Position numbers and translations under genes: made by a program
The notes under the pieces: model-generated
What the model was told of the DNA's origin: nothing
The model's input: the letters and a program-made list of their open reading frames with translations, nothing else
The model's database searches: none
In this document: piece after piece, positions 3,001 to 36,511 of the stretch
Position numbering within the stretch: the stretch's first letter is position 1
Layout: each line of letters begins with the position of its first letter
Virus record (IMG/VR): IMGVR_UViG_3300021180_000005
Span: 39,650-103,649 of that record
DNA from: a virus
Length of the DNA: 64,000 nucleotides
Reading direction: 5' to 3' (one strand)

Positions 3001-4033
3001 GTAATACACCGTAACCTTGATGTTGTTTGCTGAAATTGTTGCTGACCCACTGGAAACTGTTCCTGCAATTACAAACCCAAGATGTGAGTTGTTAATGTTC
3101 CCTGCAGGGGTTAACGTAGTGCCCCATTGGTACGAAGATGACCCTGCCGTGTATGTAGCTTTTGTGGTTCCTACTGGAATGTTGACTGTGCTGATGGGAT
3201 TAAAAGACACCGCATCATTTATCAAACTAATCTGCAGTGATCCCACTCCAAACACTGAACAAAACGAATCCACTGTCACCTTTATACCGTTAACAGTGGC
3301 GTCTGCTGGTATAGATGCTGTGGCAAAGTGATCTATAACCAGATGACCTGAGCTTTGCGCAGTTAGGTTAACCGTAGTGTACGATGTGCCAGTGGCTACA
3401 ATATTAGTAGGAGTATTCCATTGCTGTGGTCCGGGGGCATCTCCTTCGTTAGCGGTTCTGCTAGGAGTTGGCGATACGCTGTTAGGTGATCCAGATATTG
3501 CTGAGGCAAATCCCGTAATTCCAAGAATGTTGTTTGGACTTTGCCATGCATTGCCTGTACCAGTAACCGTAGCTACAGTAGGGGCATTTGGTCCAGAAAA
3601 TTCTCCTGTAGTAGACGCGGCAATTCCGACAAGAGGTGCGTACGTACCCGGAGCTAATGTTACGCCTGCAACGGTAAATGTCTTGCCTATGGCGTTTACT
3701 GATACTACCGTCACCGTTTGTCCGTTTAGAATTGATGTCTGTCCTGTGAACCCACTGAGGACAAATTGTTCATTAACCGTTGGGTCAGTACCGATGTAGC
3801 TGAAAGTTGCCAACCCTGCACTGCCTACTACAATCTGAGTTATAGTTAAGGTCTTGGTGAAGACATACACCGAGGACAAACCTGCGCGGGTAAAACAACT
3901 TCCGGTTATGTAATCCACGTCCCAATTTCGTGGGCTTGCTCCCTCTGGTAAGTCTGATGGATTGGCTGCCGTAATAAGCCCTGCGAACGTGTCAAGAGAC
4001 GCTGTTCCGAGCTGGTCAAAGATTGTGGCCCAC
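1..4033 (-). CDS. Large virion structural protein (tail/head-completion, possibly P22 gp10-like), 3'-partial; start appears to need a +1 frameshift
   Basis: Minus frame (FDQLGTASLDTFAGLITAANPSDLPEGASPRNWDVDY...PCMGAFVMRDLLYLLKTNSM) is open at both ends checked and runs off the window; Thr/Gly/Ser/Val-rich. SD GGAGG + GTG at 4033 is out of frame by +1 at CTT-TGA-C (4021-4015). Absent from the ORF track because it has no stop in the window. Confidence 0.65.
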
Positions 4034-4095
4034 TGGGTTTTCCTCCGTTATAAATATAGGCCGATTTTCACGGCCATTCCTGTTAAACAGGTGAA

Positions 4096-4344
4096 TTATG
4101 CCTGATTGGTATTTCCAACCTTCCAGCACTGTACTGGGCTTACAACTAGTGTGACGTTCTTCTGTTCTCCAACATTACCGGGTGTTTCCACGGTCAATGA
4201 TACAAGATCAGCAGGGCCACCATTTCCGCCTGCGCTTATTGGTGTAATGCTAGACACAAGGCATCGGACCATTACGTAGTCTCCTACGACAAACGGCGAT
4301 CCTTTGATGTCTCTTTCTTCAAGTGTTCCTTTAGTTGACGACAT
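4096..4344 (-). CDS. Small hypothetical virion-module protein (weakly similar to 24966..25163)
   Basis: ORF in late operon with SD GAGG; RDxxGxPxxxGD motif shared with the 24966 ORF. Confidence 0.6.
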   Translation of the reverse strand: MSSTKGTLEERDIKGSPFVVGDYVMVRCLVSSITPISAGGNGGPADLVSLTVETPGNVGEQKNVTLVVSPVQCWKVGNTNQA

Positions 4345-4347
4345 GTA

Positions 4348-5412
4348 TTATCCTCGCACCGATGTTCTATCTACCCAAACTTCAAACAACAATACATCAG
4401 CCAACACTGCTAAAGGTATGGTTTGATTAGCAATGAGTTCTACAGACACTCCTGTAGCATTGCTAAAAATTTGAAGTGTATCAGTAACTGGGCTGTAATG
4501 ATAAGTATATGCTGAGCTAGCTCCGATAAGAATGTTGGTAGGTTCTTCTCCCCACACATCGCATTTAAGGAAGCCGTTTACATCCACAGTTCTAGCATCC
4601 AAGAATGGAAATAACCCCATTGGAATTCCTCCAGTGGTGTAACCTCCGGGGGTGATAGTTACTAAACCCCATGCTCTTATCACTTTTCCAGTTATGTCTG
4701 GGAAGCAAAGCTCTGTTAGGCCTGCCAAACCAATAGTAGAAGACACAGAAGATGTACCAATAGGAGGTACAATAGCTCCCGCAGAAGGAGCAACAATAGC
4801 GTTGCTTAAAAGTGTAACTGCGCCATTACGTGCAAGGGCTCTGCCATTGAGAGCTGCTCCCGTTCCAAGAGATATAGAAGATAAAGCTACTATGTCTCCC
4901 ACAACAACAGCGCTGGTTCCTATGGTTGCAGAACTGGTCACTTGCCATAGAACGTTTTTAGCTTGCGCTCCGTTAGTTAGTAAAACAGTTGATCCTACTC
5001 CAAAAGTCAAAGAGGATGCTGCTTGGAAGATGAACTGAGCGTTTGGATTTCCTTGTCCATTCAGGGTGACCGTTTGTCCTACATTAAGCAAAATTGCTCC
5101 ACCGCTGTAAAGTCCAGCTGTGAAGGTTTGCCCGTCTAGTGCCCCTACAATAGGAGTAGCAGGAGTCAAACCAGCAAAGTACAGATACGCAGTAGTAAGG
5201 TCTGTTTGTGCCTGTGCGGCCACCGCGTCAGTGATGTGTTGCGTTGCCGGGGGAACTACTATTCCGGGAGGAAATCCAGTTACAGAAGTTCCGGGGGACA
5301 AGCCTAGGTTAGCCCCGCTGATTACAGTAGCACCAGAGTTTGTAACTGTGCTACCTGCAAGTACGGCGAAGTTATCTGCTGATCCCAATAATTGATCAAT
5401 TGTTAAAGCCAT
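4348..5412 (-). CDS. DUF3494 ice-binding-like protein fused to a C-terminal phage domain
   Basis: LGSADNFAVLAGSTVTNSG, LGLSPGTSVTGFPPG, AAQAQTDLTTAY, FIFQ, AKNVLWQVTSSATIG, GRALARNGAVTL are typical DUF3494 motifs; the C-terminal ~130 aa is paralogous to 5438..5815. Confidence 0.9.
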   Translation of the reverse strand: MALTIDQLLGSADNFAVLAGSTVTNSGATVISGANLGLSPGTSVTGFPPGIVVPPATQHITDAVAAQAQTDLTTAYLYFAGLTPATPIVGALDGQTFTAGLYSGGAILLNVGQTVTLNGQGNPNAQFIFQAASSLTFGVGSTVLLTNGAQAKNVLWQVTSSATIGTSAVVVGDIVALSSISLGTGAALNGRALARNGAVTLLSNAIVAPSAGAIVPPIGTSSVSSTIGLAGLTELCFPDITGKVIRAWGLVTITPGGYTTGGIPMGLFPFLDARTVDVNGFLKCDVWGEEPTNILIGASSAYTYHYSPVTDTLQIFSNATGVSVELIANQTIPLAVLADVLLFEVWVDRTSVRG

Positions 5413-5437
5413 ATTTTTTCTCTTTTCTATTTTGGGA

Positions 5438-5815
5438 TTAGCCTAACACTGTGGTGCGGTTCCAAGTAGCAAAAAACAAATTTGTATCATTCAAAACTTG
5501 TGGTGGAATTGCTGCACCATTTGCCAACTCTACTCCGTTTAAAAGAATCTGTAGCACATCACCCACTGGACTGTAGTGGAATGTGTACCCACCAACTGAT
5601 GCTGTTACAACATCTTCTCCGTATACTTCGCAGCGAAGAAACCCATTGAAGTCTACAGTGCGTGCGTCAGCAAACTGCAGAAGTCCCATAACAAGACCTC
5701 CAGTAACATAAGTACCTGCTGAGAAGTTAACTTGTCCCCACGCTTGGATGGTTTTTCCGGTAATGTCTGGAAATGTTAACTCTGAAAGGGTGATTGTTGA
5801 AATTAATGAACTCAT
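5438..5815 (-). CDS. Putative virion decoration-type protein, paralog of the IBP C-terminal domain
   Basis: LSELTFPDITGKTIQAWG...DARTVDFNGFLRCEVYGE...FHYSPVGDVLQI aligns with LTELCFPDITGKVIRAWG...DARTVDVNGFLKCDVWGE...YHYSPVTDTLQI. Confidence 0.7.
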   Translation of the reverse strand: MSSLISTITLSELTFPDITGKTIQAWGQVNFSAGTYVTGGLVMGLLQFADARTVDFNGFLRCEVYGEDVVTASVGGYTFHYSPVGDVLQILLNGVELANGAAIPPQVLNDTNLFFATWNRTTVLG

Positions 5816-5873: not shown

Positions 5874-6098
5874 TTAAAATTGCCTATGTTTTGGCAAAAC
5901 TTGATTTGTTAAGGGTTTCCTAATTTGCAAAGCATTGAATTTTCTTCTAACTATAAATTCATACACTTGTGGCTCTTTAGGTTTCTCTTGTTTAGCTCTT
6001 AATCTGCTCATTTCTGATCTGTGCTCTATTTCGGAGAGGTGGGCTTCTTCTTTAGCTGCAGCATTTGCTGCTTTCATTTGTTCTTCAGCGTCGCTCAC
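5874..6098 (-). CDS. Hypothetical protein
   Basis: GTGA overlap with the upstream gene; coiled-coil-like. Confidence 0.55.
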   Translation of the reverse strand: MSDAEEQMKAANAAAKEEAHLSEIEHRSEMSRLRAKQEKPKEPQVYEFIVRRKFNALQIRKPLTNQVLPKHRQF

Positions 6099-6787
6099 TG
6101 GGTCTTTTCCTTAAATACTCTCTTCATCTCTGCAATGTTTTGTTCATCTGGAAGATTTCTGTATCCACACCACGGTATGTACATTACCCACGCAAAAGGA
6201 CTATCCACGGGGTTTATCCATGGCTTGTCACGTTTAGGTGCTCGCAGACTTCTGACTTTAGGTGCAAAATCTTCCTGCTTACCTGTGTGGATTATGTATC
6301 TAGAATCATGGTGTAGAGCTATGCCTTCTTTGGACAAAATGCTGGTTACCCATACTTCATCGTTGTTGTCTCTAGGTAGCTCGGCCTTAGCTACAATACT
6401 CATAGAACGTTTTGAAAGCCAGTAGCAAAACCCGTACGGTACGGGGTATGTCCTAATGTCATTTCTGTGACCTACAAAGTCATAACTTTGAAAGTTAGAG
6501 GACAACAACTTATGAGGAATAGTTACCACATCGTCATCTATCTTAAGGATATAATCGTATTCCTTCCCCAACGCCCACCTTGTAATACCGCGTACTTTAC
6601 TTGGTAATCCTGCGTAGGAATCGTCACAATTTACGAATACCTCATCGGAGTTTGGTTCACGCTCTGCTGGTCCAAGGAAAAACCTAACGTCTGCTCCTTG
6701 CACAAGAGGCAACCATGTATCACGTATACACTGCTGATACAATAAACGCGTATGACAGTTAACAACGGCAAGTAACACTTTCATCAC
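6095..6787 (-). CDS. Glycosyltransferase (GT31/galactosyltransferase-like, GT-A fold)
   Basis: IRDTW, DDSYAGLPSKV, YDYILKIDDD (DxD) motifs. Confidence 0.75.
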   Translation of the reverse strand: MMKVLLAVVNCHTRLLYQQCIRDTWLPLVQGADVRFFLGPAEREPNSDEVFVNCDDSYAGLPSKVRGITRWALGKEYDYILKIDDDVVTIPHKLLSSNFQSYDFVGHRNDIRTYPVPYGFCYWLSKRSMSIVAKAELPRDNNDEVWVTSILSKEGIALHHDSRYIIHTGKQEDFAPKVRSLRAPKRDKPWINPVDSPFAWVMYIPWCGYRNLPDEQNIAEMKRVFKEKTQ

Positions 6788-7554
6788 GCTCTCCTGAGTC
6801 TTTGTGGTGCTCTTATCCCTCTTGCTACAGGTTGTGAAGCTATTTGTACTGTTACAGAATCCAAAGCCACATTAGAGGCAATTTGTGCCACTGTTTTTGT
6901 TCCCCATTTATTCTGAAACTTCTCTGCACCTGTACGGCAATCCACTCCCGGTCCTGTGCGTGCAAAGGTGCTTCCTGCATGTCTGTGCTCTACAGATACC
7001 TTAGAAGTAATAGCTAAGGTATAGCCTGCTAGTTGTACCCTGTGGCTATAATCGTCATCGTCATAGCCATAACTTCCACCAAACACTGGGTCCATCCATC
7101 CCACCGCGTCTATGGTTTCCCTTTTTATGTACGTGCAGATAAGGGCTAGTCTTTGATGAGAATAGGTTATACCCTCTACCATTGGGTACATTTGCAAATT
7201 ATTACCCGCTGATCCAAGTATACGAGGGGAAAGCATTCCAATCTTAGGGTCTGAGTATGCCACTTCTTGTAGCAGCTCCCACGTGTTGCTCTGTAGGAAA
7301 CGTACGTCATCTCCGCAGTATAAAATATCACTGTCCGGTGCAGCTGCTTGCCACGCCTTATTTGCATTTCCGGGATTACTAAAAATTGGAGGACCTTGTA
7401 AACATGTCCACTTGTCCCCAGTTGGCATGGTAATCTCATTGCCATCTCGTACGAATACTTTTGGAATATCTGGCAAGAACTTATCAGCGCTCTCCACAAA
7501 TACGTTAAAGATATCTGGGAATTTTCCAAGTACTGCAATTGTTACTGGGCGCAT
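6784..7554 (-). CDS. GT2-family glycosyltransferase
   Basis: ILYCGDDV, VGWMDPVF..YGYDDDDYSHR motifs. Confidence 0.75.
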   Translation of the reverse strand: MRPVTIAVLGKFPDIFNVFVESADKFLPDIPKVFVRDGNEITMPTGDKWTCLQGPPIFSNPGNANKAWQAAAPDSDILYCGDDVRFLQSNTWELLQEVAYSDPKIGMLSPRILGSAGNNLQMYPMVEGITYSHQRLALICTYIKRETIDAVGWMDPVFGGSYGYDDDDYSHRVQLAGYTLAITSKVSVEHRHAGSTFARTGPGVDCRTGAEKFQNKWGTKTVAQIASNVALDSVTVQIASQPVARGIRAPQRLRRA

Positions 7555-8705
7555 AGTCCCTCCGCAACAACCTGAGCGATGAAGTGCATATCTGCTGGAG
7601 TAAGTCCTTGGTGAATTCCAATAAAAGCTCCTTGTTTCTCCAAACGACTAGCCACTGGGTACTGCTCTGCCATACCGGGGAACAGTTTTCTATAAACAGG
7701 CTGACTTAACAGAGGAAACATAAAGCGAGTCTCAATTCCCCTTTGCTCCATATATAGAAGCAAAGCATCTCTGTCCACTCCATCTTTACATACGAACGGC
7801 CACATCATAAAGCTGTGTTCATACCCATCAGGTATACTAGGTAGTTGTAGTTTATCCTCAAAGGGCTTCAATAAGACAGTTAAACGCGTGGCGTTTTCTC
7901 TACGCCGGGCTATGTTAGGTTCCCAACGTTCCAATTCAGACAGAGCAATTGCGGCTTCTATCTCCGTACAGCGATATGAGTATCCTACTCGGTCAAACTT
8001 ATACCTACGCTCTATCATGTCCTTTGTAATGCTGTCATCGTCGTCTATGCTGGTGTAGATGCTGTCTCTTCCGTGTGCCATAAGGCTTCTGCACATTTCA
8101 TCGTACTTTGAAGAATTGGTTGTTACCAGCCCTCCTACTCCACCTACAATAAGGTGAGCTACATAGGTAGAAAAGCAGGCCATGTCACCAAAGCTTCCTA
8201 CGGATTTGCCGTTTATAGAAGAGAACATAGTCTCACATGAGTCTTCTATTACGTCTAATCCATAGTAATTTGCAATGGACATAATCCTAGGCATGTTAGC
8301 TGGTAGGCCAAACAAATGCACAGGTATAATAGCTACGGTTTTACTAGTCACTTTCTCCGCAATCTTATCTGGGTCCATGTTGAACGTAAGAGGATCAACG
8401 TCCACAAAAACCGGAGTAAGATTATTCTGCAGCACCACATTAGACGTAGCAATAAAAGTGATCGCCGGAACAAGTACTTCGTCTCCGTCTTCATAACAAT
8501 GGCGTTCCTTTAGTGCCGCCAATGCAATCTGCAGGGCAGAAGTACCGCTATTGCAGAATACTCCGTGTTTACAGCCGTGCATCTTAGCAAAGTCATGTTC
8601 AAATTTAATTGTGTATTTACCTTTAGAAAGTCTATTTGAATCTAGACAGTCGTTAACATACTTTTTGCCTTGGTCGCTTATTAACAGGTAACCTAGTGTT
8701 ATCAT
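7542..8705 (-). CDS. DegT/DnrJ-family PLP enzyme, His-variant (ColD-like GDP-4-keto-6-deoxymannose 3-dehydratase)
   Basis: NSGTSAL, PVFVDVD, PVHLFG, VIEDSCE; FSTYVAHLIVGGVGG has His where aminotransferases have the PLP lysine. Confidence 0.8.
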   Translation of the reverse strand: MITLGYLLISDQGKKYVNDCLDSNRLSKGKYTIKFEHDFAKMHGCKHGVFCNSGTSALQIALAALKERHCYEDGDEVLVPAITFIATSNVVLQNNLTPVFVDVDPLTFNMDPDKIAEKVTSKTVAIIPVHLFGLPANMPRIMSIANYYGLDVIEDSCETMFSSINGKSVGSFGDMACFSTYVAHLIVGGVGGLVTTNSSKYDEMCRSLMAHGRDSIYTSIDDDDSITKDMIERRYKFDRVGYSYRCTEIEAAIALSELERWEPNIARRRENATRLTVLLKPFEDKLQLPSIPDGYEHSFMMWPFVCKDGVDRDALLLYMEQRGIETRFMFPLLSQPVYRKLFPGMAEQYPVASRLEKQGAFIGIHQGLTPADMHFIAQVVAEGLCAQ

Positions 8706-9478
8706 CTGAGTCTCTTCCTTATCTCTTCATCAATTCTTTTATGAAGGTTTGTGTACTTCATAGCTTCGTGAAGATTGTCATCAATAGACTTGAGCTTAGA
8801 CTCATAAAAACTTGAGGAAAGACCTCCTAAAATATCCATGAATTCCTGTTGTGTTTCAAATGACAATATACTGTCTGTATTAAAATACTCATTGACATTG
8901 GGACAACCCCAGTAAATCGGTACAGTGCGAGATACCAAGCAATCTATCAACTTTTCTGTGATCCAATTCTTACGTTTTCCGTTTTCCATGACTATAGCGT
9001 ACTGGAACGGGTATAAAAATTCCTTCTTGTCTTCCACATATGGAGGAGACATGTGCTTAATGATGGGTATTTGCCCCGCTTGTGCTGGTAGAGTGTTATA
9101 TATGTCGTGCCTAAAGTAATGACCCTTGCACATAGTCTTGGAGCTGGTTAAATAAGACACAGAGAACTGCTTTTTGGACACATCACAGTCATCTGTCGGG
9201 TCTTCAGCCCAGCGGCATGTGCCAAAGATAAACTTATGTGAATTATTAGGGCATCCTTCTAAGGTTCTTACATTCCACGCTAATATAAGATCATAAAATG
9301 TATGACTGTCAAGTAACGTTTGTTCTGTTGGTACGATGTCGGGAGGTTCCAACTGAAAGAACACCTTATACTCTGTGGTGTCGGAAAAGTCAAATGTATC
9401 TGTGGCTATAGACACAGGTCTAATTTGATCTGCAAAATGATTGTGTAGCGTCCCACCTATGGTTTTTGTTTTGAACAT
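8702..9478 (-). CDS. GT10-family (alpha-1,3-fucosyltransferase-like) glycosyltransferase
   Basis: KKEFLYPFQYAIVMEN..NWITEKLIDC...VPIYWG fucosyltransferase motif; start reassigned to ATG 9478. Confidence 0.8.
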   Translation of the reverse strand: MFKTKTIGGTLHNHFADQIRPVSIATDTFDFSDTTEYKVFFQLEPPDIVPTEQTLLDSHTFYDLILAWNVRTLEGCPNNSHKFIFGTCRWAEDPTDDCDVSKKQFSVSYLTSSKTMCKGHYFRHDIYNTLPAQAGQIPIIKHMSPPYVEDKKEFLYPFQYAIVMENGKRKNWITEKLIDCLVSRTVPIYWGCPNVNEYFNTDSILSFETQQEFMDILGGLSSSFYESKLKSIDDNLHEAMKYTNLHKRIDEEIRKRLR

Positions 9479-10398
9479 TGAGTCGTATACCAATCTATGG
9501 TACTCTGAAGTCCTTTCCATAAGGGTGTTCTGGCTCTGAATCCGAAAGTTGTGGCGCGGGTGCAATCGAACAATCTGCGAGATTGCCCTTCTGGTTTACT
9601 GCTGTCCCATTTTGTCAACCCTTGGTGCCCTAGTAGAGAGGTTATCAAACTAACAACGCTCTCTATAGATACTTCATCACCTGTAGCAATGTTGACTGGT
9701 TCTTCATCGTCATATAATTCTGTAGCAAGTACTATAGCCTCTGCGCAGTCCTCAACATACAGGAACTCACGGCTAGCTTTACCTGTTCCCCAAGCTGTGA
9801 AGTCAGTACCGTTTTGCATGGCTTCCATACATTTGCGTATGAGTGATGGAATCACATGGGAACGTGCTGGGTCAAAACTATCTCGTGGCCCGTACATGTT
9901 CACAGGTACAAGTCCGATAGCATTCATGCCGTACTGCTTGCGATACGCTTTGCATTGCTCCAAAAGGACACGCTTGGCGATGCCATAGGGGGCATTGGTC
10001 TCTTCTGGGTAACCATTCCATAGGTACTCTTCTTTAGCTGGTAAACTAACGTTCAACGGGTAGGCACACACACTGCTAATTGCTACGAACTTCTCTACGT
10101 TATGTTCTCTGGCACCTTCTAGAACTTCTGTATTCATTGTCAGGTTATCATATAGGAACTTTGCAGGGTTTGCAGAGCAGGACTGTATACCGCCGCACAT
10201 AGCGGCTGCGTGAATTACAACATCTGGGGTATACGCACTATACAGCTCACACACTTCTTCACGTCGTCTCAGGTCATAGTCTATGTGTCTAGCAGATACT
10301 ACATCTTTGCATCCGTGCTCGTGTAGTTTGTCTACAACGTGGCTGCCGAGGAAACCTTCTCCTCCAGTTACCAGTACACGTTTGGTTGTGAGATTCAT
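9457..10398 (-). CDS. fcl: GDP-L-fucose synthase / ColC-like epimerase-reductase
   Basis: [58 protein letters not shown]. Confidence 0.92.
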
Positions 10399-11354
10399 TG
10401 TCTGAGTTCCTTTAGATCAGCCTCTACCATCATTATGAGAAGTTCATTCCATTTTACCTTAGGTTCCCATCCAAGTTCTCTTTTAGCCTTAGAGGCATCG
10501 CCTTGTAAAATATCAACTTCTGTTGGCCTAAAATACTTTTGGTCGATTCCCACATAGTCATGCCAATTCATGTCTAAATGACTAAAAACTACTTCAAGCA
10601 TCTCTTTAATTGAGTGGGTCTCTCCAGTGGCTAAAACATAATCAGATGGAGTGCCCTTCTGAAGCATACGCCACATACCTTCTACATACTCAGCCGCATA
10701 GCCTATATCTCTCTTTGCCTCTAAATTTCCAAGAAGCAATTTGTCTTGAAGTCCTAACTTTATACGAGCGGCTGCAAGAGTTAATTTGTGCGTTACAAAG
10801 GTTTCTCCCCGGCGAGGACTTTCATGGTTGAATAGTATACCGTTGCTGGCATGCAATCCTTGCTCTCTTGCATTCACTGTATACCAAAATGCGAACTGCT
10901 TGGCAATGCCGTACGGGCTACGAGGGTAAAAAGGTGTGGTCTCTCGTTGTGGCGTCTCCAGAACCTTGCCGAATAATTCTGAAGAACTAGCTTGGTAGTA
11001 CCTTGTCTCTGGGCAATGTGTTTTTACAGCCTCCAGAAGTCTAAGTGTTCCCATAGCGTCTACATCAGCTGTGTATTCAGGGCAGTCAAAACTCACACGT
11101 ACGTGGGACTGAGCGCCCAAGTTGTAGGTCTCATCGGGTTTTATTTTAGACAGCATAGACCCAAGCGCACTGCCATCGCTGAGGTCTCCGAAGTGCAGAT
11201 GCAATTGGTCAAAAATATGATCTATACGTGCCGTGTTCAAGGAAGATGAACGCCTCACAATGCCATGCACTTCGTATCCCTTGCTTAGCAATAGCTCCGA
11301 CAAGTAGGACCCATCTTGCCCTGTCACCCCGGTAATTAGCGCCTTTTTAGGCAT
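10395..11354 (-). CDS. gmd: GDP-mannose 4,6-dehydratase
   Basis: [54 protein letters not shown]. Confidence 0.97.
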
Positions 11355-11515
11355 CCTTCTTCCTCCTGAGTCTTACATAGTTTATGCATAAGGAAGTACT
11401 CTTTATCTCTAATCTCTATATGTGCATCTACTGTTTCTACTCTGTTGGAACACAACACACACCGTCTGCTGTACAGTTTGAAGTACATCTCTAATGCTAA
11501 TTTTTTCCATTTCAT
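11336..11515 (-). CDS. Small Cys/His (CxxC...HxxC) hypothetical protein
   Basis: ATGA overlap with upstream gene; CVLC...HKLC. Confidence 0.5.
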
Positions 11516-12249
11516 ATTCTGAGCCATCGTTCTGGTACTATATCTATTGAATCTTCATTGCCTGTTCTAAACCACTGCTTAGGAGCTATCACGGTTCCTG
11601 TTTTGTCTGCCCCCAACCACGCGCCCCACCATGAGAACGAAGAATTGGCAATGATGGCATTCTTGCACTTACTCATTAACCATATGTCTTCATGCGGTGC
11701 ACAATTTACTCTAGTCATTGGGTATGGCAGTTCTAAATTATAATTCGCATCATCTGAGAACACAAAGAAGTGTGGATTAGAAAAATGTTTGGCGGCTTCT
11801 TGATAATAACTCATAGGCAGCGTACCATGTCTCTGTGCAGCCCATGTAAGGTAGTCCCCTCGTCTAACATGAAGCATTACGCTATTTGGTGTATCTCTGA
11901 TAATAGAAGCTACCACCTGAGCAGATGAACTAGGCGTATCCCTAAGAGTAAGTTCTGATTTTAGTTCATTTTCTACTATATTGAAATACCTCTCACACTG
12001 GTAATAACCTGCCAATATAGCCGGGTCTTCAATTTCTGGATTGGGGTCAAAACGCAGTGATCTCTCTGCAACCCATCTCCAGCCGGGATGAGGCAGTATA
12101 GGCAGCGCTATGTTGAAACGGTTGAGTTGACACCCATATTGATTGCAAGAGTCCAGCAGGCTTACCGAATGTGTTTTAGATAAAGAACGAGCAAAGGCAT
12201 ATTGAAATAGAGTGTTGCCTATACCTCCGCATAGATTAACGGATATCAT
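11512..12249 (-). CDS. GT11-family alpha-1,2-fucosyl/colitosyl-transferase
   Basis: GGIGNTLFQYA, GYYQCERYF, LHVRRGDY, FVFSDD, IIANSSFSWWGAWL; start reassigned to ATG 12249. Confidence 0.92.
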   Translation of the reverse strand: MISVNLCGGIGNTLFQYAFARSLSKTHSVSLLDSCNQYGCQLNRFNIALPILPHPGWRWVAERSLRFDPNPEIEDPAILAGYYQCERYFNIVENELKSELTLRDTPSSSAQVVASIIRDTPNSVMLHVRRGDYLTWAAQRHGTLPMSYYQEAAKHFSNPHFFVFSDDANYNLELPYPMTRVNCAPHEDIWLMSKCKNAIIANSSFSWWGAWLGADKTGTVIAPKQWFRTGNEDSIDIVPERWLRI

Positions 12250-12257
12250 TCTGAGTC

Positions 12258-18577: not shown

Positions 18578-18579
18578 GA

Positions 18580-21749: not shown

Positions 21750-21962
21750 TTAAACCAATTTTGCCAACTCCGCTTTAGCTGCGGCGACTACCTTAACCGC
21801 ATCCGCGATGATCAACGGGTTAAGCTTATTAAGGTCCGTTACAATGGCCGCTTCTACTATTGGCGCTTCCTTCACAAACGCAGCCTTAATCTTTCGTCCA
21901 ATGCTAGGCGTAAACGCACCTACTACGTATGCTGCTACGCCACCTGCAATGAGTTCTACCAT
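21750..21962 (-). CDS. Small membrane-anchored hypothetical protein
   Basis: SD GGAGG + ATG 21962; hydrophobic N-terminus. Confidence 0.55.
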   Translation of the reverse strand: MVELIAGGVAAYVVGAFTPSIGRKIKAAFVKEAPIVEAAIVTDLNKLNPLIIADAVKVVAAAKAELAKLV

Positions 21963-21988
21963 ACAATTACCTCCACGGGGGTTAAAGG

Positions 21989-23568: not shown

Positions 23569-24261
23569 CAAATATGTTGCGCCGTTTCGTTTGTATAAAC
23601 GGCTCTCGTAATTACTTACGAGTTCAGACTATATCATACCTTTACGGTTCAACTGTACAAGTTGATCTCTTAGTTCTTGTCTCTTTTGGTGAGCCTCAAT
23701 GTATATAGGACTGTCTGTAGTCAGCTTCAATCCCTGCTGACATCCATTTCTTCCTTCGTATACCCGCTCAAACTCTAAACCAATAAGAGCCTGCCGCTTC
23801 TTTATCACTAGATAAGGAAGCATTGTTTCAAGAACTGCTATTCGATTGTTCTTACCTTTAGGCATCCATGCGTATTGTGTTTTGCAGTTGTTCTTGTTTT
23901 TAGAGCAACTAACAGAGTACATACCACCAAAATTACTAATCAACCACTGCATCAACTCTAGGTTGGTGTTTGCTATCTTCACGTTCATCTGGAAGATGGT
24001 TGTGTTGTTTTTGTTGTGGCTAGTACTGATACAAACGGTGCCTTCACCATCGAACAGCCCAGCCAGATACGACCAGTGCGTTTCATTTGAGTTTTTCATA
24101 AAAGTTGTAGTGCTTCGGTCTCACTTGAGACCTACTCCCTTGCGGGATAGTCGTTACACCTTCCTCAGTTCCGAGGAGCGGCTCGGTATTGTCTGATATA
24201 CGATTCTATTATATCAGGTTTCCACCGAATTCTCTACATTTTACACGGGCAGATTTTGTTT
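23569..24261 (-). mobile_element. Group I intron (693 nt) in the major capsid gene
   Basis: P1 CACGGGU/GCCCGUG with U-G at the 5' splice site; P GAAUUCGGUG, Q AAUACCGAG, R AACGACUA, S GAUAUAGUC (P7 GACUA/UAGUC); terminal G. Confidence 0.92.
23629..24099 (-). CDS. Intron-encoded LAGLIDADG homing endonuclease
   Basis: WSYLAGLFDGEGTV, LPYLVIKKRQA; stop codon overlaps the S element. Confidence 0.93.
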   Translation of the reverse strand: MKNSNETHWSYLAGLFDGEGTVCISTSHNKNNTTIFQMNVKIANTNLELMQWLISNFGGMYSVSCSKNKNNCKTQYAWMPKGKNNRIAVLETMLPYLVIKKRQALIGLEFERVYEGRNGCQQGLKLTTDSPIYIEAHQKRQELRDQLVQLNRKGMI

Positions 24262-24705
24262 ACCCGTGCCATCACTGTTGATCAAACCTTCGATACCCTG
24301 CATTGCTGCATCCAAAGAGTTCTTCATTTCCTGTGCTTTGACAGCGAAGAGACCCTTCTGCTTGGAATCTGTGGAAGCCTGAGCTAGCCAAGAGATTTCG
24401 CAAACGTTGAACAGGTATACTGGGGCCAGAGCGAAGGAAGCCCATTGTGAACCGCTGCCACGTAGCATGCTATCTGCGTTGCCAGTGCCTTGTGAAATTG
24501 CCGCACCAGCCTGTACCCGGAAAGGTACGCGGAATGATGCACGTTGTGTCCCGCCAGCGTTCGACTGGTTGGATACAGGAATCTTTGTTGCTTCAGCCTT
24601 GAACATGCTGTATGCGGTAGTTCCGTGGAAAACTAGATCGGGAATTTCCTTAGCAAACGCATCAAGTTCAACTGCTTCTACTGCTGCTTCTAAAAGTGCT
24701 GCCAT
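24262..24705 (-). CDS. Major capsid protein, exon 1
   Basis: 148 codons ending GAT GGC ACG GGT at the splice site. Confidence 0.8.
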
Positions 24706-24965
24706 ACTAACCTGCTATACTACTAAAAGTCTCTCGTAAAATAGTGTAACCTCTGAGCGAGTTCTACTGAGACTGTTCCGCTGAGTCGTTCATTGCGTTT
24801 GTGCTACAGCAATTCTTGGTGTGCCCATATTTAAGGTGTTGTCGCCACCATCACACTTTAGAACTGACGTTGAGATGTAACTCCGTGACCGCCTTGTTAT
24901 ACGCTAGCAACAGGCCTTATGTTTCTTCAGGCAGTCGCGGAGGCACATCTCTGTGCCTTCTTTTA

Positions 24966-25163
24966 TTACAATGTCTGCGTTGAGGCTGCTATATCCTGAG
25001 CCTGAACGTTCACAACAAGTCCAGAGCCTGAAAGGGTAACTGGAATCAGTGTGGTTGGTCCGCTGTTAGTTGGAACGGTTCCTAATGTTCCAACGATTGT
25101 TGCGGCATCTCCAGTATTAACTGGTTTGCCGTCTCTGCTATTTGGTCCTGAATTTGTTGACAT
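24966..25163 (-). CDS. Small hypothetical protein (possible capsid accessory)
   Basis: SD AGAGGA; lies between scaffold and MCP. Confidence 0.6.
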   Translation of the reverse strand: MSTNSGPNSRDGKPVNTGDAATIVGTLGTVPTNSGPTTLIPVTLSGSGLVVNVQAQDIAASTQTL

Positions 25164-25182: not shown

Positions 25183-26685
25183 TTACTTTCTCCAAGTCAC
25201 AAATTTTACCGATTTGCCATCTGGAGTTTTTACGAATCCCCGACCAGTTATTTGCAACGTAATCAGATCAGAAGATGTATAATCCTTACCACCTACTTTA
25301 ATAGGATCACGCACAAGGTTCGTGGGACGACTAGCAACATAAATAGGCTTTCCTGTGTTTACCGATTGTGTTGCTGCTTTTGCCGCTGTTTCTTTCTTCA
25401 CCGTAGCTGCGGCTGCTTTACCAGCTGCTGAGCCACCCTTGGCGTAATTAGGGTAGCGTGCTTGAATAGTCTTTGTAACTACATCAGTGGCGATAGAGTT
25501 TAACTTGGCTTCGTGGTATTGTACAATCTTTGCGCGATCTGGAGTTTTCTGCTTCCACATTGCGCTCATTTGTGTCTGATATGCATTATCTGCTTTTAGG
25601 GCTGCATACAGACGTTCCTTAATTCCGTTTCCTAAATCAACTTTGGTCTCATATGGGAAATCTTTGAAGAAAGGCATCTTCAAGAATCCACCTAAAACCT
25701 TACCTAAAGATACGTTATTTTTCTTTTCGCACTCTTCGGCTACTCCAGTTTCAAACTTTGTGCGATCTTCCGCTGCTGAGTCTGCTTTGGTCTTCTCGAA
25801 TGCAGCTTTTTCTGCTAAGAACTTCTTACGCTCTGGAGTTTCCGTAGGGGTAGTAGTTCTTGTCTTTGCATCGTTGCTCAAATCGTTGTACCAGTCAGTA
25901 ATGCTCTTAACTAGACTAGTAATCTTAGCAACATTTGGTACTACTTCTCCCTTTTCGTTCTTCTCTACAAGGGCTGCATTGAACTGACTAACGAAGGAAT
26001 CCATGTGGACTTCCTTCAGTGCGTTTGCAACTACAGGAATAGTGGTATTATAAAATGCATCTACATCATGTACCTTCAACTTCTCCAAAAGAGAAGGTGC
26101 CAATTCACCCAGTGCTTCGGGATGACCGTTAGCCTTAAGGTCCTCAATAACGTTGTCCCAAATCTTACTATCTGCTGCGTAGAGCATCTCATCTACAGCA
26201 GCAACCGAGTCTAACGCCTCCTGCATTTTCTGGTAGCCTTCGGGTCCACCGATTGTGTCGATAAACGCCTTGGCTTCCTGCATCTCTGAGACGCCTTTAG
26301 GGAAAATTTGTTTTGCAGCCGACCAACGTTCAAATGCTCCGTGAAGTTCTTTAACTACAGAAGCATTCTTGGGGTCCGCATCTCGCATTGCTTTAAGCGC
26401 AGATCGCACATTTGCAGGTGTTGCATCTTTTAGTTTATCTGTTGCTTTTTCAGAAGCCTCGGTTTTAAACTTTTCCTGTTCTTCAGGTGTTTTGTCTGTA
26501 CCATCGGCATTCTTTGTTTCGGTCTCTACTCCCTCGGTAGTTTCCTCTACAGGTTTATCTTCTGTTGCCTCTTCTGTTGAGTCTACGGCAGGTGTTTCAA
26601 CTACGGTTGAGTCTACTGTGGTTTCTGGTTCTGCTACTGCTGTGGATGTATCCGCAATTGCGAAGTCCACCATTTCTTCGGACAT
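25183..26685 (-). CDS. Putative capsid scaffolding protein
   Basis: Acidic low-complexity N-terminus, helical body, between portal and MCP. Confidence 0.65.
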   Translation of the reverse strand: MSEEMVDFAIADTSTAVAEPETTVDSTVVETPAVDSTEEATEDKPVEETTEGVETETKNADGTDKTPEEQEKFKTEASEKATDKLKDATPANVRSALKAMRDADPKNASVVKELHGAFERWSAAKQIFPKGVSEMQEAKAFIDTIGGPEGYQKMQEALDSVAAVDEMLYAADSKIWDNVIEDLKANGHPEALGELAPSLLEKLKVHDVDAFYNTTIPVVANALKEVHMDSFVSQFNAALVEKNEKGEVVPNVAKITSLVKSITDWYNDLSNDAKTRTTTPTETPERKKFLAEKAAFEKTKADSAAEDRTKFETGVAEECEKKNNVSLGKVLGGFLKMPFFKDFPYETKVDLGNGIKERLYAALKADNAYQTQMSAMWKQKTPDRAKIVQYHEAKLNSIATDVVTKTIQARYPNYAKGGSAAGKAAAATVKKETAAKAATQSVNTGKPIYVASRPTNLVRDPIKVGGKDYTSSDLITLQITGRGFVKTPDGKSVKFVTWRK

Positions 26686-26699
26686 TTGAGTCTCCTGAG

Positions 26700-27134
26700 T
26701 TATTTCTGAGTCTTGTACTTCTCTATATAGTCTGCGGCCATTCTGAGTATAGTAGGGTTGTCTTGAAAAAGTCCTAAAGCATGGTTACAAGAAGAACACA
26801 ACAATCCACGAGGAACCGGAGGCACAATGTGCTCATGGTCAGCATGCGGAGTATTAGTGAACTCTCTAGTGCATATTGCACAGCGATTATTCTGTTCTAT
26901 CTTTGCTTTTTCTATAGACTCCTGAGTCCATCCAATTTTAAGTAAACGTCTATTTTGTTTTCTTTTATAGAGTTCGACTTTGTTTTCTTTCCAGTACTTC
27001 TTGTGGAGTCTACTTTTGGCTTCACCTTGGTATGTAGCTTCATAACACGACCTACATAAACCTTTGGCATGGTGTTTTCTCTCAGGATGACACGTGTTCA
27101 CCTTGAGTTTTCTTACAAAAATTCCTTTTGGCAT
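26700..27134 (-). CDS. Endonuclease VII-like homing endonuclease
   Basis: QNNRCAIC...HADHEH..PRGLLCSSCNHALGLFQDN. Confidence 0.88.
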   Translation of the reverse strand: MPKGIFVRKLKVNTCHPERKHHAKGLCRSCYEATYQGEAKSRLHKKYWKENKVELYKRKQNRRLLKIGWTQESIEKAKIEQNNRCAICTREFTNTPHADHEHIVPPVPRGLLCSSCNHALGLFQDNPTILRMAADYIEKYKTQK

Positions 27135-32578: not shown

Positions 32579-32953
32579 TTAACTCTTGGAGGCCACTGCG
32601 GCTTCCTCTGCTAATTCTTTTTCTATTTGTAAATCATGTGCTTCAACTTCCGCTTGCCAACTTGTTTTGACAGGTGGGGAAGTAAACGATGCGAAACTGG
32701 GCTTCTCTGCGCGTTTACGTGTAGGGTCAATACCTACCCTTGCGTTGATGTTTAATTCGTACATTGAGATTTTAGTTTGGAGAAATGATTTTTCGCTTCT
32801 TAGCTCTGCTATAGTTTGGTCTTTGTCTTGTCGTAGTGCTTGGTTTTCCATTTGCAGTCTAAAAATCTCCGCTTGCATTATCTCTGCTAGACGTGAACCA
32901 AACAGTTTTCTGAGCGCTTCCCTAAACGCCTGCGCTGCATTCACAATGCTCAT
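32579..32953 (-). CDS. Coiled-coil hypothetical protein
   Basis: ATGA overlap with terL stop. Confidence 0.6.
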   Translation of the reverse strand: MSIVNAAQAFREALRKLFGSRLAEIMQAEIFRLQMENQALRQDKDQTIAELRSEKSFLQTKISMYELNINARVGIDPTRKRAEKPSFASFTSPPVKTSWQAEVEAHDLQIEKELAEEAAVASKS

Positions 32954-34626
32954 GCTGAGTCCTTCCCCATCCACACTGGCTGGTCCTGCGGCTTAAATGA
33001 TAAGGTTTTGTTTGCTGCCTCTGCATCTAGTTTCATTTTTAAGAAATGCGCCGCAAGGGGATCATTCTTCTTTAATGCAGCTATTCTCTCTGCCTCTGCT
33101 TGCGCTTCTGGTTTTTTCTTTGCGGCTAAATGACCATACAGACCATAACGCAGAGCATCATAGCAGTCGTCCCCTTTTGCGTCTACTTTTAGAACATCGT
33201 CTAAATTGTCTGGGTCACGCATTAAGGTTGGAATAGCAAGTATAATTTCTTTACAGGTATCTAAGAAAACCAGCTCACCCTTTTTTAGCATATTGTACAT
33301 CAAGGATGCAGAACCAATACGGTCCCTAGTGGCAGGTGTCACAGAAGGCAAACCTACTACTCGTAATGCACGTGAGTACTCATCTGCTGGTGATCTAGCT
33401 TCCATCTGTCTAGCAAATTTTTCATGAGAAAAATATATGGCTTTAAGTTTGAAAGTTTGTCCATTTGGGAGCTTACATTTAGCTTGAAGGATAGACACTA
33501 GCTGATCCATGGTCTTACCTCCAGTTACAACTATTTCTCCAAAGCAAACTGTTTTAAGTTTATAATCTTCTCCTACCGAGTTCTTAACCATCGCTTTTGT
33601 AAATAAATATAAAGCATTTGCATGCTGTACTCCCCAGTCATGTCCTGCCCATACTGGTTGATAGTCTTGCCAAATTATAGCTTCTGGGTCTTCTCTTAGA
33701 TTTATAACGTGATAGTATGAATCAAACACGTCAAAATATTGCCCCTCTACTGTTCCATCTAAGCCGAGAAGCATTTTATCTCGCTTCGCCTTAGGCATAG
33801 ACATGAGTCTGGAAATAATTCCGGGATCACGTTTTAGCAGTTCAGTGTTATCCATCACTGTAGAACGTTGACAGGCGTACTTACTTGGGTCGTAAATGCA
33901 CCGCCATTCTCCGCCTTCGGTTACCCACCATGTGCCATTGGTTTCATCCTTGCGTGCATCCTCAGGCTTATCCCATGGCTCTTTTTCTACAAAAAGTTTT
34001 CTATAGTATTCATAGTGAGGCCCAAGTGGATTGCTACATCCAATAATTACTGGAACCGGAAGATTACCCGCCTCATCGCGTTGGCAACCGGGATTAATTA
34101 TGTTTCTAGAATACAACATTAACCACGCATCTGCTGAGAACTGTCCACACTCATCTACTAAAATTCCACAATATGCTTGTCCTAGATATTGAGCAATATC
34201 TTTTTCTCTTAAGTTGTTGCAATGCCCAAATATAATTTTGGAACCATTTTTAAAAGTAGCTACGTGCTTTGTTTGGTCGTAATCGTATAGTTCTTTTGGT
34301 ACGAAAGTACGAAAGTCGCTAATGGCCCCTGCCTCTAGTTCCTTAAAGGTTCTGCGAAGGACAAGAACATTACACCCCGAAAATTGTAAACAATAATGCA
34401 TGGTTAAATAAAGTAACCAACCTGAGGTTTTACCGCTACGAATGCCGCCAACACTTAAGACTTGCTGTGCCACAGGCTGGACATAAACTTTACCGTTCCT
34501 CATTACATTTCTAAGCAGCTCCGTCTGTTTCGGTTGAAATCTGAATATCTTCTCGAAGTTAAGAGTACCGTCAGCGTTGATATACGCAGGACGTTCTCCT
34601 CCCTCGATTATTTTTTTTCTAGGCAT
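32950..34626 (-). CDS. terL: Terminase large subunit
   Basis: Walker A GGIRSGKT, Walker B GILVDE, coupling CSNP, nuclease GHDWG and DDCYDALRYG; start reassigned to ATG 34626. Confidence 0.93.
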   Translation of the reverse strand: MPRKKIIEGGERPAYINADGTLNFEKIFRFQPKQTELLRNVMRNGKVYVQPVAQQVLSVGGIRSGKTSGWLLYLTMHYCLQFSGCNVLVLRRTFKELEAGAISDFRTFVPKELYDYDQTKHVATFKNGSKIIFGHCNNLREKDIAQYLGQAYCGILVDECGQFSADAWLMLYSRNIINPGCQRDEAGNLPVPVIIGCSNPLGPHYEYYRKLFVEKEPWDKPEDARKDETNGTWWVTEGGEWRCIYDPSKYACQRSTVMDNTELLKRDPGIISRLMSMPKAKRDKMLLGLDGTVEGQYFDVFDSYYHVINLREDPEAIIWQDYQPVWAGHDWGVQHANALYLFTKAMVKNSVGEDYKLKTVCFGEIVVTGGKTMDQLVSILQAKCKLPNGQTFKLKAIYFSHEKFARQMEARSPADEYSRALRVVGLPSVTPATRDRIGSASLMYNMLKKGELVFLDTCKEIILAIPTLMRDPDNLDDVLKVDAKGDDCYDALRYGLYGHLAAKKKPEAQAEAERIAALKKNDPLAAHFLKMKLDAEAANKTLSFKPQDQPVWMGKDSA

Positions 34627-35083
34627 CTGAGTGCTTTCTACATAAGTCTGTTCGGAAAGCTGCGCTACAGGTAGTACCACAAAACTTTTTCTTTTTTGTC
34701 TGTGCAGTAATTGGTGCACCACATTCCCAACAGCTTATTGTCCATGGTTTTCTTAACAAAGGTCGCCCAGTTCTCCCAATTCCACGTGGAGCATGGTGAA
34801 CTCTATGCTCCCTAACAGGAAGCAGCTCATAGTTACTTCCGTCAATTGGGTTATTAAGTGGATTTTCATCTTTATGATGCACTTCAAACCCTTCATCAAT
34901 GCTACCGTTTTTGCTTTCATAAATAGCAACATGAAGGTACGTTTTAATTCCCTGTCTCCAACCTTTGTAATAAACTCTATCAGACCTTCGTGCGGATTCT
35001 GGGTATCTGTAATAAATAACATCTTCGAACACCACAGTTTGTGAAACAGCAGGCGTACGGTCTTTTCTAAATCCTTTTGGCAT
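34619..35083 (-). CDS. HNH homing endonuclease between terS and terL
   Basis: YLHVAIY...VHHKDENPLNN...NYELL..EHRVHH; C-terminal CxxC..CxxxC. Confidence 0.85.
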   Translation of the reverse strand: MPKGFRKDRTPAVSQTVVFEDVIYYRYPESARRSDRVYYKGWRQGIKTYLHVAIYESKNGSIDEGFEVHHKDENPLNNPIDGSNYELLPVREHRVHHAPRGIGRTGRPLLRKPWTISCWECGAPITAQTKKKKFCGTTCSAAFRTDLCRKHSDA

Positions 35084-35089
35084 TGCTTT

Positions 35090-35168
35090 ACTCCTCCATT
35101 AAAGGTCGAGGAGAGCGGTGTTAATGGCACCGCCCTCTACTCTGCTCCAAGCTGATCAAGGCTTGGGA
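35090..35168 (-). promoter_or_regulatory. Kissing-loop SD-sequestering RNA element, copy 4 (overlaps terS stop)
   Basis: Stem GAGGGCGGUG/CACCGCUCUC (G-U only on the minus strand), loop CCAUUAA pairs with UUAAUGG. Confidence 0.8.
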
Positions 35169-35668: not shown

Positions 35669-36077
35669 TTGCTCCCCATTTCCTAAGATAGCTTAAAGCT
35701 AGATGCATGAACTCTGTGTTCTCTATAGAACCGAGCATCGTATTGCACCTATTGTGTAATAAACCTCTAGGTGTTGGAGGATCATTATGCTTATGGTCGG
35801 CACAAGGTGTCTCATTTTCTTCAAAAGGCTGTTTACAAAGATCACAACAATTATTCTGTATAGACTTTGCTTCTTCTATTGAGTCCGGTGTCCATCCTAT
35901 TTTATTCAGTGCTGATTTTCTAGAGCTTTTTATATGGCTGTTTCTAAATTCTACATCATTTTCATATCTATCTTTATATCGCTTTTTCTCAGTTAGTTTC
36001 AAACACTTAATGCAGGCCTTATTCTTATCTATGTTTCCCGTTGTTCTTTCGTGACCACGTTTACAATGTGTTTTCAT
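35661..36077 (-). CDS. Endonuclease VII-like homing endonuclease
   Basis: KTHCKRGH, QNNCCDLC, ADHKH..PRGLLHNRCN. Confidence 0.85.
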   Translation of the reverse strand: MKTHCKRGHERTTGNIDKNKACIKCLKLTEKKRYKDRYENDVEFRNSHIKSSRKSALNKIGWTPDSIEEAKSIQNNCCDLCKQPFEENETPCADHKHNDPPTPRGLLHNRCNTMLGSIENTEFMHLALSYLRKWGANV

Positions 36078-36079
36078 TT

Positions 36080-36152
36080 TACCTCCAATAAAGGTTGAAC
36101 CTAGAGTGTATTGGGCACTCTAGGCTCTGCGTTGGGTAATTAGTCCAACGAT
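36080..36152 (-). promoter_or_regulatory. Kissing-loop SD-sequestering RNA element, copy 5
   Basis: Stem CCUAGAGUG/CACUCUAGG, loop CCAAUA pairs with UAUUGG in the ACCU/AGGU hairpin. Confidence 0.8.
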
Positions 36153-36155
36153 TAT

Positions 36156-36485
36156 TTACAGCTTCTTAAACTGTGATAATGCAGCGTCAAAAATGTAAGA
36201 AGTTTTTTCTAGAGCATACTTCTTGAATAAACCTTCTATATAATCTGTATACTGTTTTGATTTTGTCTCAGTGATTTTACTTAGGCGTTGAATCTCTAGC
36301 TGGGCCTTTAGATATTCTAATTCTGCCTCTCGCAAAAAGAGCTTTTCTTCCGCCGTGATGTTTACCAGAGCAGCCTTAACAGCTTCCTCGGCTTTAACAA
36401 CTTCACCTTCGATTTTTTCAACTACAGACTTTGCTTCTGTCTCAACTGTTTTAACTACGTTTTCAACTGCTGTTTCTACGCTCAT
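36156..36485 (-). CDS. Coiled-coil hypothetical protein
   Basis: SD AGGAG + ATG 36485. Confidence 0.6.
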   Translation of the reverse strand: MSVETAVENVVKTVETEAKSVVEKIEGEVVKAEEAVKAALVNITAEEKLFLREAELEYLKAQLEIQRLSKITETKSKQYTDYIEGLFKKYALEKTSYIFDAALSQFKKL

Positions 36486-36511
36486 ATCTGAGTTCTCCTG
36501 AGTTTTATTTA

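Follow-up and report, generated by a model that had tools for sequence, protein, structure and literature searches.

Phages P1 and P7 encode the c4 RNA, whose loops a' and b' act against a2 and b2, of which b2 covers a ribosome-binding site. This RNA, the CI RNA of phage P4, and the multi-loop seed RNAs of Staphylococcus appear to be the nearest systems in logic to the one described here, which concerns a structured RNA of about 200 nucleotides (nt), named R1, and a short word, ACUCAG, that recurs at the starts of the late genes of the phage encoding it. The stretch of DNA that was analyzed, called the window, has 64,000 nt and corresponds to bases 39650-103649 of a 103,649-bp phage record (IMGVR_UViG_3300021180_000005), which is called G000. 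R1 lies at 17784-17985 of the window, on the late (minus) strand, and its loops carry the complement of the word.

Like R1, c4 and CI are small structured phage RNAs lying in the same transcription unit as their targets, and they use short exposed complementary stretches against more than one target site. They differ from R1 in having two targets within one leader and in being devoted to immunity control, whereas R1 would have one 7-nt seed for about 16 starts distributed over 40 kb. R1 shows neither sequence nor structure homology to c4 or CI, and no Rfam family matched it. In Staphylococcus aureus, RNAIII and the RNAs of the RsaE type also display one short seed (the C-rich UCCC in that case) in several hairpin loops, by which many ribosome-binding regions are blocked. 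These seeds, however, pair with the Shine-Dalgarno sequence itself, while the seed of R1 would pair with a dedicated word beside it; the regulon would therefore be set by an added address and not by a universal signal. R1 differs also in being phage-encoded and in having phage genes as its candidate targets. The trans-acting small RNAs of enterobacteria that are of the Hfq type, including the phage RNAs VpdS, PreS, and DicF, have in common with R1 an exposed seed, an A/U-rich stretch, a GC-rich hairpin followed by a U-rich tail, and targets in start regions. For most phage small RNAs on record, the targets are host genes or one regulator of a phage. In the passages searched of a review of the known phage small RNAs, no late-gene regulon with a shared start-region motif is described (PMC12197685).

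Two further groups of regulators resemble this system in part. The CsrB and RsmZ sponges also repeat a short word in hairpin loops, and ribosome-binding sites are involved as well; nonetheless, their loops mimic the mRNA site in order to bind a protein, whereas the loops of R1 are the complement of the site on the favored strand. Among ten early proteins of this phage that were scanned, none is CsrA-like. In phage T4, RegB (which cleaves at GGAG) and RegA (which binds start regions) allow the phage to control a class of genes by means of a short word in their initiation regions, as is proposed here. Both are proteins acting on early or middle mRNAs through another word, while no protein is implicated in the present case.

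The Start-Site Word of the Late Genes

The late genes of the phage are encoded on the minus strand (genome 17.1-78.3 kb), in a region that covers window positions 1-38650, and the plus strand carries the early and replication genes. Ordinary Shine-Dalgarno sites of the AAGGAG type are found in both early and late genes. A preliminary description of the window had noticed that ACUCAG recurs at translation starts across the late operon and had not seen the pattern at rightward gene starts. Both observations were borne out. Every CTGAGT position that it gave does hold CTGAGT (ACUCAG in the late mRNA) adjoining a minus-strand start codon, the exception being 24781, which is 75 nt 5' of the capsid gene. 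The variant ACUCAA is present at 9478, 19518, 21583, and 26686, and the variants ACUCGG, GCUCAG, and ACCCAG were also found where they had been reported and are given little weight.

On both strands of the window there are 53 copies of ACTCAG, compared with an expectation of 37.5 +/- 6.0, and 37 of them are in the late sense. The start windows from -30 to +6, defined with our own gene calls in the 61-kb late block, represent 3.7% of its sequence and hold 11 of its 35 copies (odds 12, p = 3e-8). AGGAGA is the only hexamer that scores above ACTCAG in this enrichment, and GACTCA and AGACTC tie with it. A second test, which is free of gene callers, compared ACTCAG with 180 permutations of the same six letters and counted as start-proximal the copies ending 0-25 nt before the start of an open reading frame (ORF). 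On the late strand, 15/35 copies of ACTCAG are start-proximal, against a mean of 7.8% for the 180 composition-matched hexamers, and the word ranks first of the 180; on the early strand, only 1/15 copies is. Over 18 loci, the strand opposite to the genes has 0-2 start-proximal copies per locus, and none in 16 of them.

The usual layout of the sites is GGAG-ACUCAG-N0-2-AUG, in which the word occupies the spacer between the Shine-Dalgarno sequence and the AUG. Extra copies are often found just 5' of the Shine-Dalgarno sequence, and the tandem spacing is 9-11 nt. From 17 genomes or fragments, 340 distinct sites were collected, 55 of which end between -1 and +3 nt from the start codon; a second cluster is located 8-11 nt upstream of it. 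In G000, about 16 of the 73 late genes, roughly one fifth, have a site in the start region. Those candidate targets to which Pfam gives an identity are for the most part enzymes or helper proteins, namely terminase, a Cpn10-like protein, GDP-mannose dehydratase, an epimerase, a DegT aminotransferase, and glycosyltransferases. The capsid gene, the gene of an 863-amino-acid (aa) protein, and those of the large tail proteins lack a spacer site.

The word is also conserved in related phages. The relatives were drawn from IMG/VR and from metagenome assemblies, the names of which suggest soil and peat. One of them, G001, is collinear with G000 (103,946 bp, 54% GC vs 45% in G000) and has retained the word where the orthologues of terL and of the Cpn10-like, 500-aa, 109-aa, and 280-aa genes start, with flanks that are unalignable. 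The sugar-pathway genes of G000 have no nucleotide match in G001, only protein matches of 30-35%, and still carry the word. Because these accessory genes lack a close counterpart in G001, the word is not simply inherited with the core genes. No match to this clade was found in 50,697 GenBank phage records (a search of cultured phages), nor any prophage copy among 185,579 prokaryote genomes; the data suggest a clade of phages of roughly 100 kb seen solely in metagenomes of soil and peat. The sole hint of the host is a permuted transfer-messenger RNA (tmRNA) at 62714-62997.

R1, a Structured RNA with the Complementary Loops

R1 sits between a homing-endonuclease ORF (17993-18577) and a GT4-like gene (16730-17731), and its covariance model scores 158 bits at 17784-17985 (cmsearch, minus strand). 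Its architecture comprises a helix P1 around hairpin 1, then a linker rich in A and U (CAUGUAAUUUUAG), and finally hairpin 2, which is long and resembles a terminator. Helix P1, which encloses the hairpin-1 domain (17904-17975, minus strand), is formed by the pairing of 17968-17975 with 17904-17911; it is 98% paired, and three of its pairs are compensatory. Loop 1 (17936-17944, minus strand) has 9 nt, UUCUGAGUC, is closed by GCGU/ACGC, and is the complement of GACUCAGAA. Loop 2 (17844-17852, minus strand), also of 9 nt, AUCUGAGUC, is the tip of hairpin 2, closed by AACG/CGUU, and is the complement of GACUCAGAU. Both loops contain the exact complement of the start-site word (invariant loops UCUGAGUC), and their predicted unpaired probabilities are 0.89 and 0.77, respectively, compared with 0.38 over the whole RNA. 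Hairpin 2 itself (GGGGGAGUG...CCACUCCCCC, 17816-17880) is followed by a U-rich tail (17800-17815), so that the segment 17800-17880 of the minus strand is terminator-like. The long GC-rich hairpin and the U-rich tail are found in all homologues, and the tail is clearer in some relatives, for instance UUUUUUG in L114.

The homologues were recovered by a search with the neighboring 280-aa protein and then with the covariance model. In about 30 contigs of related metagenomic phages, R1 is located directly downstream of the 280-aa gene. In the consensus, 90.9% of the cells are paired, vs 46-55% with slid partners; 18 of the 30 pairs show compensatory change, and none of 500 shuffles matches the observed values. 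The 7-mer CUGAGUC is invariant in the homologues, about 30 in number, and the stems closing the loops change in nearly every relative (GCGU/ACGC, GGGG/CCCC, CUG/CAG, and UUUUG/CAAAA are examples). In G001, the same two loops are present at the orthologous place on different stems, and a distant clade retains loop 1 only, without loop 2. A loop-agnostic pattern scan of IMG/VR for homologues with a variant seed returned known members only, and the word AUUUCAG, repeated before each hairpin domain, has no use elsewhere in the genome. In the window, no Rfam family reached its gathering score, and at the R1 locus none appeared at E <= 5 apart from a spurious microRNA match. R1 defines a new RNA family with about 30 members, previously undescribed.

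The strand from which the RNA is read decides what its loops display. The consensus energy is -29.8 kcal/mol on the late strand vs -17.4 on the opposite one, the late strand has the lower minimum free energy in 19 of 22 sequences, and its pairs include 55 G-U, compared with 12 A-C. The U-rich tail agrees with the late strand, and R1 is co-directional with the late genes between which it is tightly packed. The strand gap in covariance-model scores was not used as evidence, because it follows from the construction of the model. Since these tests favor the late strand, what the loops display is complementary to the start-site word, and an antisense RNA is favored over a mimic. The first three comparisons also speak against a CsrB-like sponge or decoy, the loops of which would carry the word found in the mRNA sites.

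An extra hairpin, CCUCAGG-N9-CCUGAGU (18632-18654, minus strand), is found between the 280-aa gene and the homing-endonuclease ORF, and in this case CUGAGUC is in the stem and not in the loop. ARAGORN calls a plus-strand tRNA-Phe at 18577-18660, which would be antisense to the late operon; Rfam makes no such call, and these bases, read along the late strand, fold into the CCUCAGG/CCUGAGU hairpin 5' of the homing-endonuclease ORF.

Several observations connect the loops with the motif. The late block of the window has six CTGAGT copies on the late strand, and three of these, each within CUGAGUC, are found in a non-coding stretch totaling roughly 250 nt around the homing-endonuclease ORF. On the late strand within the late block, the 8-mer TCTGAGTC occurs only in the two loops of R1, in both complete genomes. 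Its reverse complement, GACTCAGA, has five late-strand copies per genome; in G000, four of the five coincide with a gene start or closely precede one, and in G001 four immediately precede a start. A G precedes the motif at 58% of the start-proximal sites, and the enriched word ends exactly at the G that pairs with the last C of the loop. On these grounds the true target word would be GACUCAG, ACUCAG being the same word minus its 5' G. In every relative bearing R1, ACTCAG or GACTCA ranks 1-4 of 180 near ORF starts. This co-occurrence holds down to 44-54% identity of the neighboring protein and across 41-54% GC; by contrast, L121 (32% identity), the single relative of this kind, has no R1 at that place and 0/1 start-proximal copies. 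In G000, a loop duplex of -9 kcal/mol or lower is predicted at 16/73 late starts, at 0/49 coding-interior controls, and at 1/63 early starts; the corresponding predictions for G001 are 8/41, 2/30, and 1/85. R1 lies inside the late gene block, and target sites are found both upstream and downstream of it.

Among its explanations, the preliminary description had included a target for a phage RNA carrying CUGAG. This idea is favored by the data, but with R1 as the partner and not with the RNAs that had been named. The CUGAGU of the tmRNA segment (62830) is absent from G001. The leader at 47 kb is not conserved in G001 at the nucleotide level, and the intergenic copy there (47175-47180) reads ACUCAG on the rightward strand, not the complement. 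As for the element at 62.3 kb, its rightward reading carries ACUCAGG itself together with a CCCUGAG able to pair in cis. A protein regulator or a processing signal, the other options that had been put forward, found no direct support here.

The element at 62.3 kb is a conserved structured leader (62290-62520, plus strand) that precedes a conserved 61-aa gene (62520-62705), with orthologues in G001 (24806-25000), L122, and L123. Its hairpin, CCGGAGAC-ACACUCAGG-GUCUCCG, shows ACUCAGG, which the downstream AAGGCCCUGAGCCUU is able to pair with in cis. ACUCAGG is kept in the four genomes while the stems differ. This hairpin might serve the CUGAGUC RNA as one more target or as a decoy.

Proposed Mechanism and Alternative Explanations

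The explanation preferred here, with a probability of about 0.55, is that GACUCAG is the seed-match site of the phage-encoded R1, which would pair with about 16 late genes in their initiation regions and, most probably, repress them. The enrichment, position, and strand specificity of the word, the covarying RNA structure, the complementary loops that never change, and the joint presence of RNA and motif in the relatives are direct observations, and from them we infer the pairing of R1 with the motif in vivo and the direction of its effect. R1 would expose the 7-mer CUGAGUC at the tips of one or two of its hairpins, in accessible loops of 9 nt, which would form 7-9 base pairs with GACUCAG(A)(A/U). 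The pairing would take place in the spacer between the Shine-Dalgarno sequence and the AUG, just 5' of the Shine-Dalgarno sequence, or at both places, in about 16 of the 73 late genes. These would include terL, the Cpn10-like gene, the run of GDP-sugar and glycosyltransferase genes, the 500-aa gene of the head module, and the 280-aa gene just 5' of R1. The duplex should compete with the 30S ribosomal subunit and lower translation, because it would cover about -9 to +2; likewise, the commonest site stretches from the final Shine-Dalgarno base into the beginning of the AUG, so that pairing there should exclude the 30S subunit. Genes with tandem sites could engage both loops. Such a repression could make timing sharper, or adjust how much of the enzymes and assembly factors is made in proportion to structural proteins such as those of the capsid and tail. 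The pattern of targets suits a device for limiting or timing non-structural late proteins, and the fit is imperfect.

Several results weigh against this explanation. In simple scans, no sigma-70 promoter was predicted for the R1 element and the terminator scanner made no call on hairpin 2; it may be that no separate small RNA is ever liberated from the element. Duplex prediction with the whole RNA failed to separate late from early start regions. Complementarity in the flanks of the sites is modestly enriched (p = 0.004-0.01), a value confounded by the purine-rich context near the AUG. The loop is invariant across all relatives, and because the seed never varies there is no covariation between seed and target. 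In the variant with a UCC loop, a G follows the motif at 8/19 start-proximal sites, compared with 7/31 in the single-loop relatives with a UCU loop, which is a trend only. A 9-nt loop on a stem of 4-5 bp caps the duplex at about 7-8 bp. Finally, the gene with the most sites, the 500-aa gene, may encode a high-copy scaffold (a weak lead), which misfits a simple repression of low-copy proteins.

For this last reason, activation, stabilization, or processing is kept as a serious variant, even if an unlikely one: R1 and the motif would pair, with an outcome other than repression, so that R1 would activate or stabilize the mRNAs, open or protect the starts, guide or block an RNase at cistron junctions, or remodel the capsid leader. 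The putative scaffold gene, for which high expression is expected, has the most copies (at -57, -20, -9, and 0), the distal ACUCAG of the capsid leader is kept in four relatives, and the second cluster of sites, 8-11 nt upstream of the start, is outside the spacer. The dominant position, 0-2 nt from the AUG, falls nevertheless within the 30S footprint, where pairing by a small RNA is expected to block initiation. It is less probable still that ACUCAG is read by a protein, such as a RegA-type regulator or a RegB-type endoribonuclease, or by the ribosome as a favored spacer, the complementary RNA being incidental or secondary. The tight position of the motif relative to the AUG and the tandem copies 9-11 nt apart would suit such a reader, and a 209-aa early protein conserved in G001 (50057-50686, plus strand) has a 30-residue match to the C-terminal part of ribosomal protein L7/L12 (E = 1.9e-7, above the Pfam cut-off). 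Yet the early genes, which are translated by the same ribosomes from strong AAGGAG sites, lack the motif, and a Pfam search with ten mostly small early proteins revealed no RNA-binding domain. A protein or ribosome reading also leaves unexplained why an invariant exact complement stands in covarying loops of every motif-bearing relative.

The remaining alternatives do without any recognition of RNA. According to one, GACTCAG/CTGAGTC would be a DNA-level signal, that is, a site of binding, GANTC-type methylation, or nicking that marks gene boundaries. GACTC does fit GANTC, the phage has many homing endonucleases, and both orientations are found if the hairpin loops are counted. Despite this, the counts of the four GANTC words are close to those of a Markov model, and a link to starts is seen solely for the C variant in one of its orientations; the orientation of the motif is strictly gene-sense, as the 16 of 18 loci without start-proximal copies on the opposite strand indicate, and the inverted copies coincide exactly with RNA loops on covarying stems that contain G-U pairs. 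A DNA-level signal is thus very improbable, and methylation of the CcrM type in particular was rejected on the normal GANTC counts and the sense-only start linkage of (G)ACTCAG. Chance, or the shared descent of ribosome-binding cassettes without function, is the least credible option of all. The genome-wide count of ACTCAG is indeed near Markov expectation, which would suit chance; however, the word ranks first of 180, and the result recurs in more than 15 genomes or fragments of 41-54% GC, with unalignable flanks and variable copy number, and accessory genes lacking a close counterpart in G001 carry the site. Two other candidates were discarded. Pairing with the anti-Shine-Dalgarno sequence of the host does not account for the word, since ACUCAG adds no complementarity to the canonical 3' end of 16S rRNA and the early genes have plain AAGGAG without it. 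A late or T7-like promoter was rejected as well, as nothing is conserved 5' of the motif and the Shine-Dalgarno sequence stands on that side.

Returning to repression by R1, a broader version of it may be proposed tentatively, although it is rather doubtful. GACUCAG/CUGAGUC would constitute a phage-wide address code, in which R1, as a stable RNA with twin identical loops, would bind about one fifth of the late starts and also the ACUCAGG hairpin at 62.3 kb, as a decoy or a target. The accumulation or titration of R1 would then shift ribosomes from enzymes and assembly factors to structural proteins, and new genes would join by gaining the word. The comparison with the relatives suggests a phage RNA that would have the phage's own late genes as its regulon, and a seed-type control in which a dedicated 7-nt word in the spacer between the Shine-Dalgarno sequence and the AUG would define that regulon. 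If true, late-gene control would have an extra post-transcriptional layer, and acquired genes, here those of the GDP-sugar pathway, would be wired into the viral program by a few bases. Furthermore, the seed and its address would form a compact, portable pair for the synthetic control of translation.

Sites in Individual Genes

All the sites described below are on the minus strand. The 109-aa gene (36156-36485) is preceded by the tandem ACUCAG-GAGA-ACUCAG-AU-AUG (36488-36503), with gaps to the AUG of 2 nt for the copy at 36488 and 9-12 nt for that at 36498; the start of its G001 orthologue carries GGAGACUCAGAAUG. In the large terminase gene terL (32950-34626), ACUCAG (34627-34632) abuts the AUG (0-nt gap), and the duplex of the loop with this start is predicted at -10.6 kcal/mol. 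In G001 and L002, the terL motif, ACUCAGUG, overlaps a GUG start. The terL start of G000 is most likely the ATG at 34626, which overlaps the stop codon of the upstream gene (34619-34626), and probably not the GTG at 34719-34722 that opens the longest ORF. The 124-aa gene (32579-32953) has GGACUCAG-C-AUG (32955-32960, 1-nt gap), and G001 lacks a site at this gene.

The 500-aa gene (25183-26685), a possible scaffold gene of the head module on a weak lead (0.86), has more copies than any other gene, with three ACUCAG (26743, 26706, and 26695) and one ACUCAA (26686) within 26686-26748. Its leader keeps the motif in seven of eight relatives, in one to four copies with variable spacing and diverged flanks; in the eighth, L006, the tblastn match of the protein begins at residue 59, which places the start region outside view. 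Searches of PHROGs, Pfam, PDB, and Atlas with the 500-aa, 863-aa, and 280-aa proteins gave no firm annotation.

In the leader of the major capsid gene, ACUCAG is distal (24781-24786, at -75) and the Shine-Dalgarno sequence is weak. This leader (24706-24800) contains the conserved elements ACGACUCAGCGGAACAG...CGCUCAGAGG...CAUUUUACG, which are kept in G001, L006, and L025. The capsid gene is split in G000 (22678-23568 and 24241-24705, the latter being its first part) by an insert with a 156-aa ORF (23629-24099), while in G001 it is uninterrupted and encodes 443 aa.

Downstream, two ACUCAG copies (21992-22015) stand 29 and 47 nt 5' of a small ORF (21750-21962). The Cpn10-like gene (20942-21580) has ACUCAG-GAG-ACUCAA-UC-AUG (21583-21597, with a gap of 9-12 nt for the ACUCAG at 21592), a site kept in G001, L019, L022, L024, and L025, with a predicted duplex of -12.5 kcal/mol. 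In the 94-aa gene (20261-20545), the motif forms codons 2-3 (AUG-ACU-CAG, 20537-20542) and is not kept in G001. The 280-aa gene (18665-19507), which precedes R1 in every relative, has ACUCAG-AAG-ACUCAA-GGAG (19518-19532), and this site is kept in G001, L024, and L025.

The remaining sites belong to sugar-pathway genes. The GT11 glycosyltransferase gene (11512-12249) has GGACUCAG-A-AUG (12251-12256, 1-nt gap), and the GDP-mannose 4,6-dehydratase gene (10395-11354) has GACUCAGGAGG, with its motif at 11366-11371, a gap of 9-12 nt, and a predicted duplex of -12.5 kcal/mol. In the epimerase gene (9457-10398), the arrangement is AAGGA-ACUCAG-ACA-AUG (motif at 10402-10407, 3-nt gap). The DegT-type aminotransferase gene (7542-8705) has GAGACUCAG-AUG (motif at 8706-8711, 0-nt gap), with nine contiguous pairs to loop 2 and a predicted duplex of -13.1 kcal/mol. 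The galactosyltransferase-like gene (6095-6784) has GACUCAGGAGA (motif at 6794-6799), again with a gap of 9-12 nt.

A second start-linked word, ACCUUU, was observed in leaders of the form C(G/A)ACCUUUnnnGGAGG. They belong to small ORFs, several being homing-endonuclease-like. Seven of the 28 copies of ACCTTT are start-proximal, and an upstream CUCCC is able to pair with the Shine-Dalgarno sequence. These leaders, also on the minus strand, are found at 18578-18625, 21963-21990, 35084-35110, 36078-36100, 37976-38000, and similar places.

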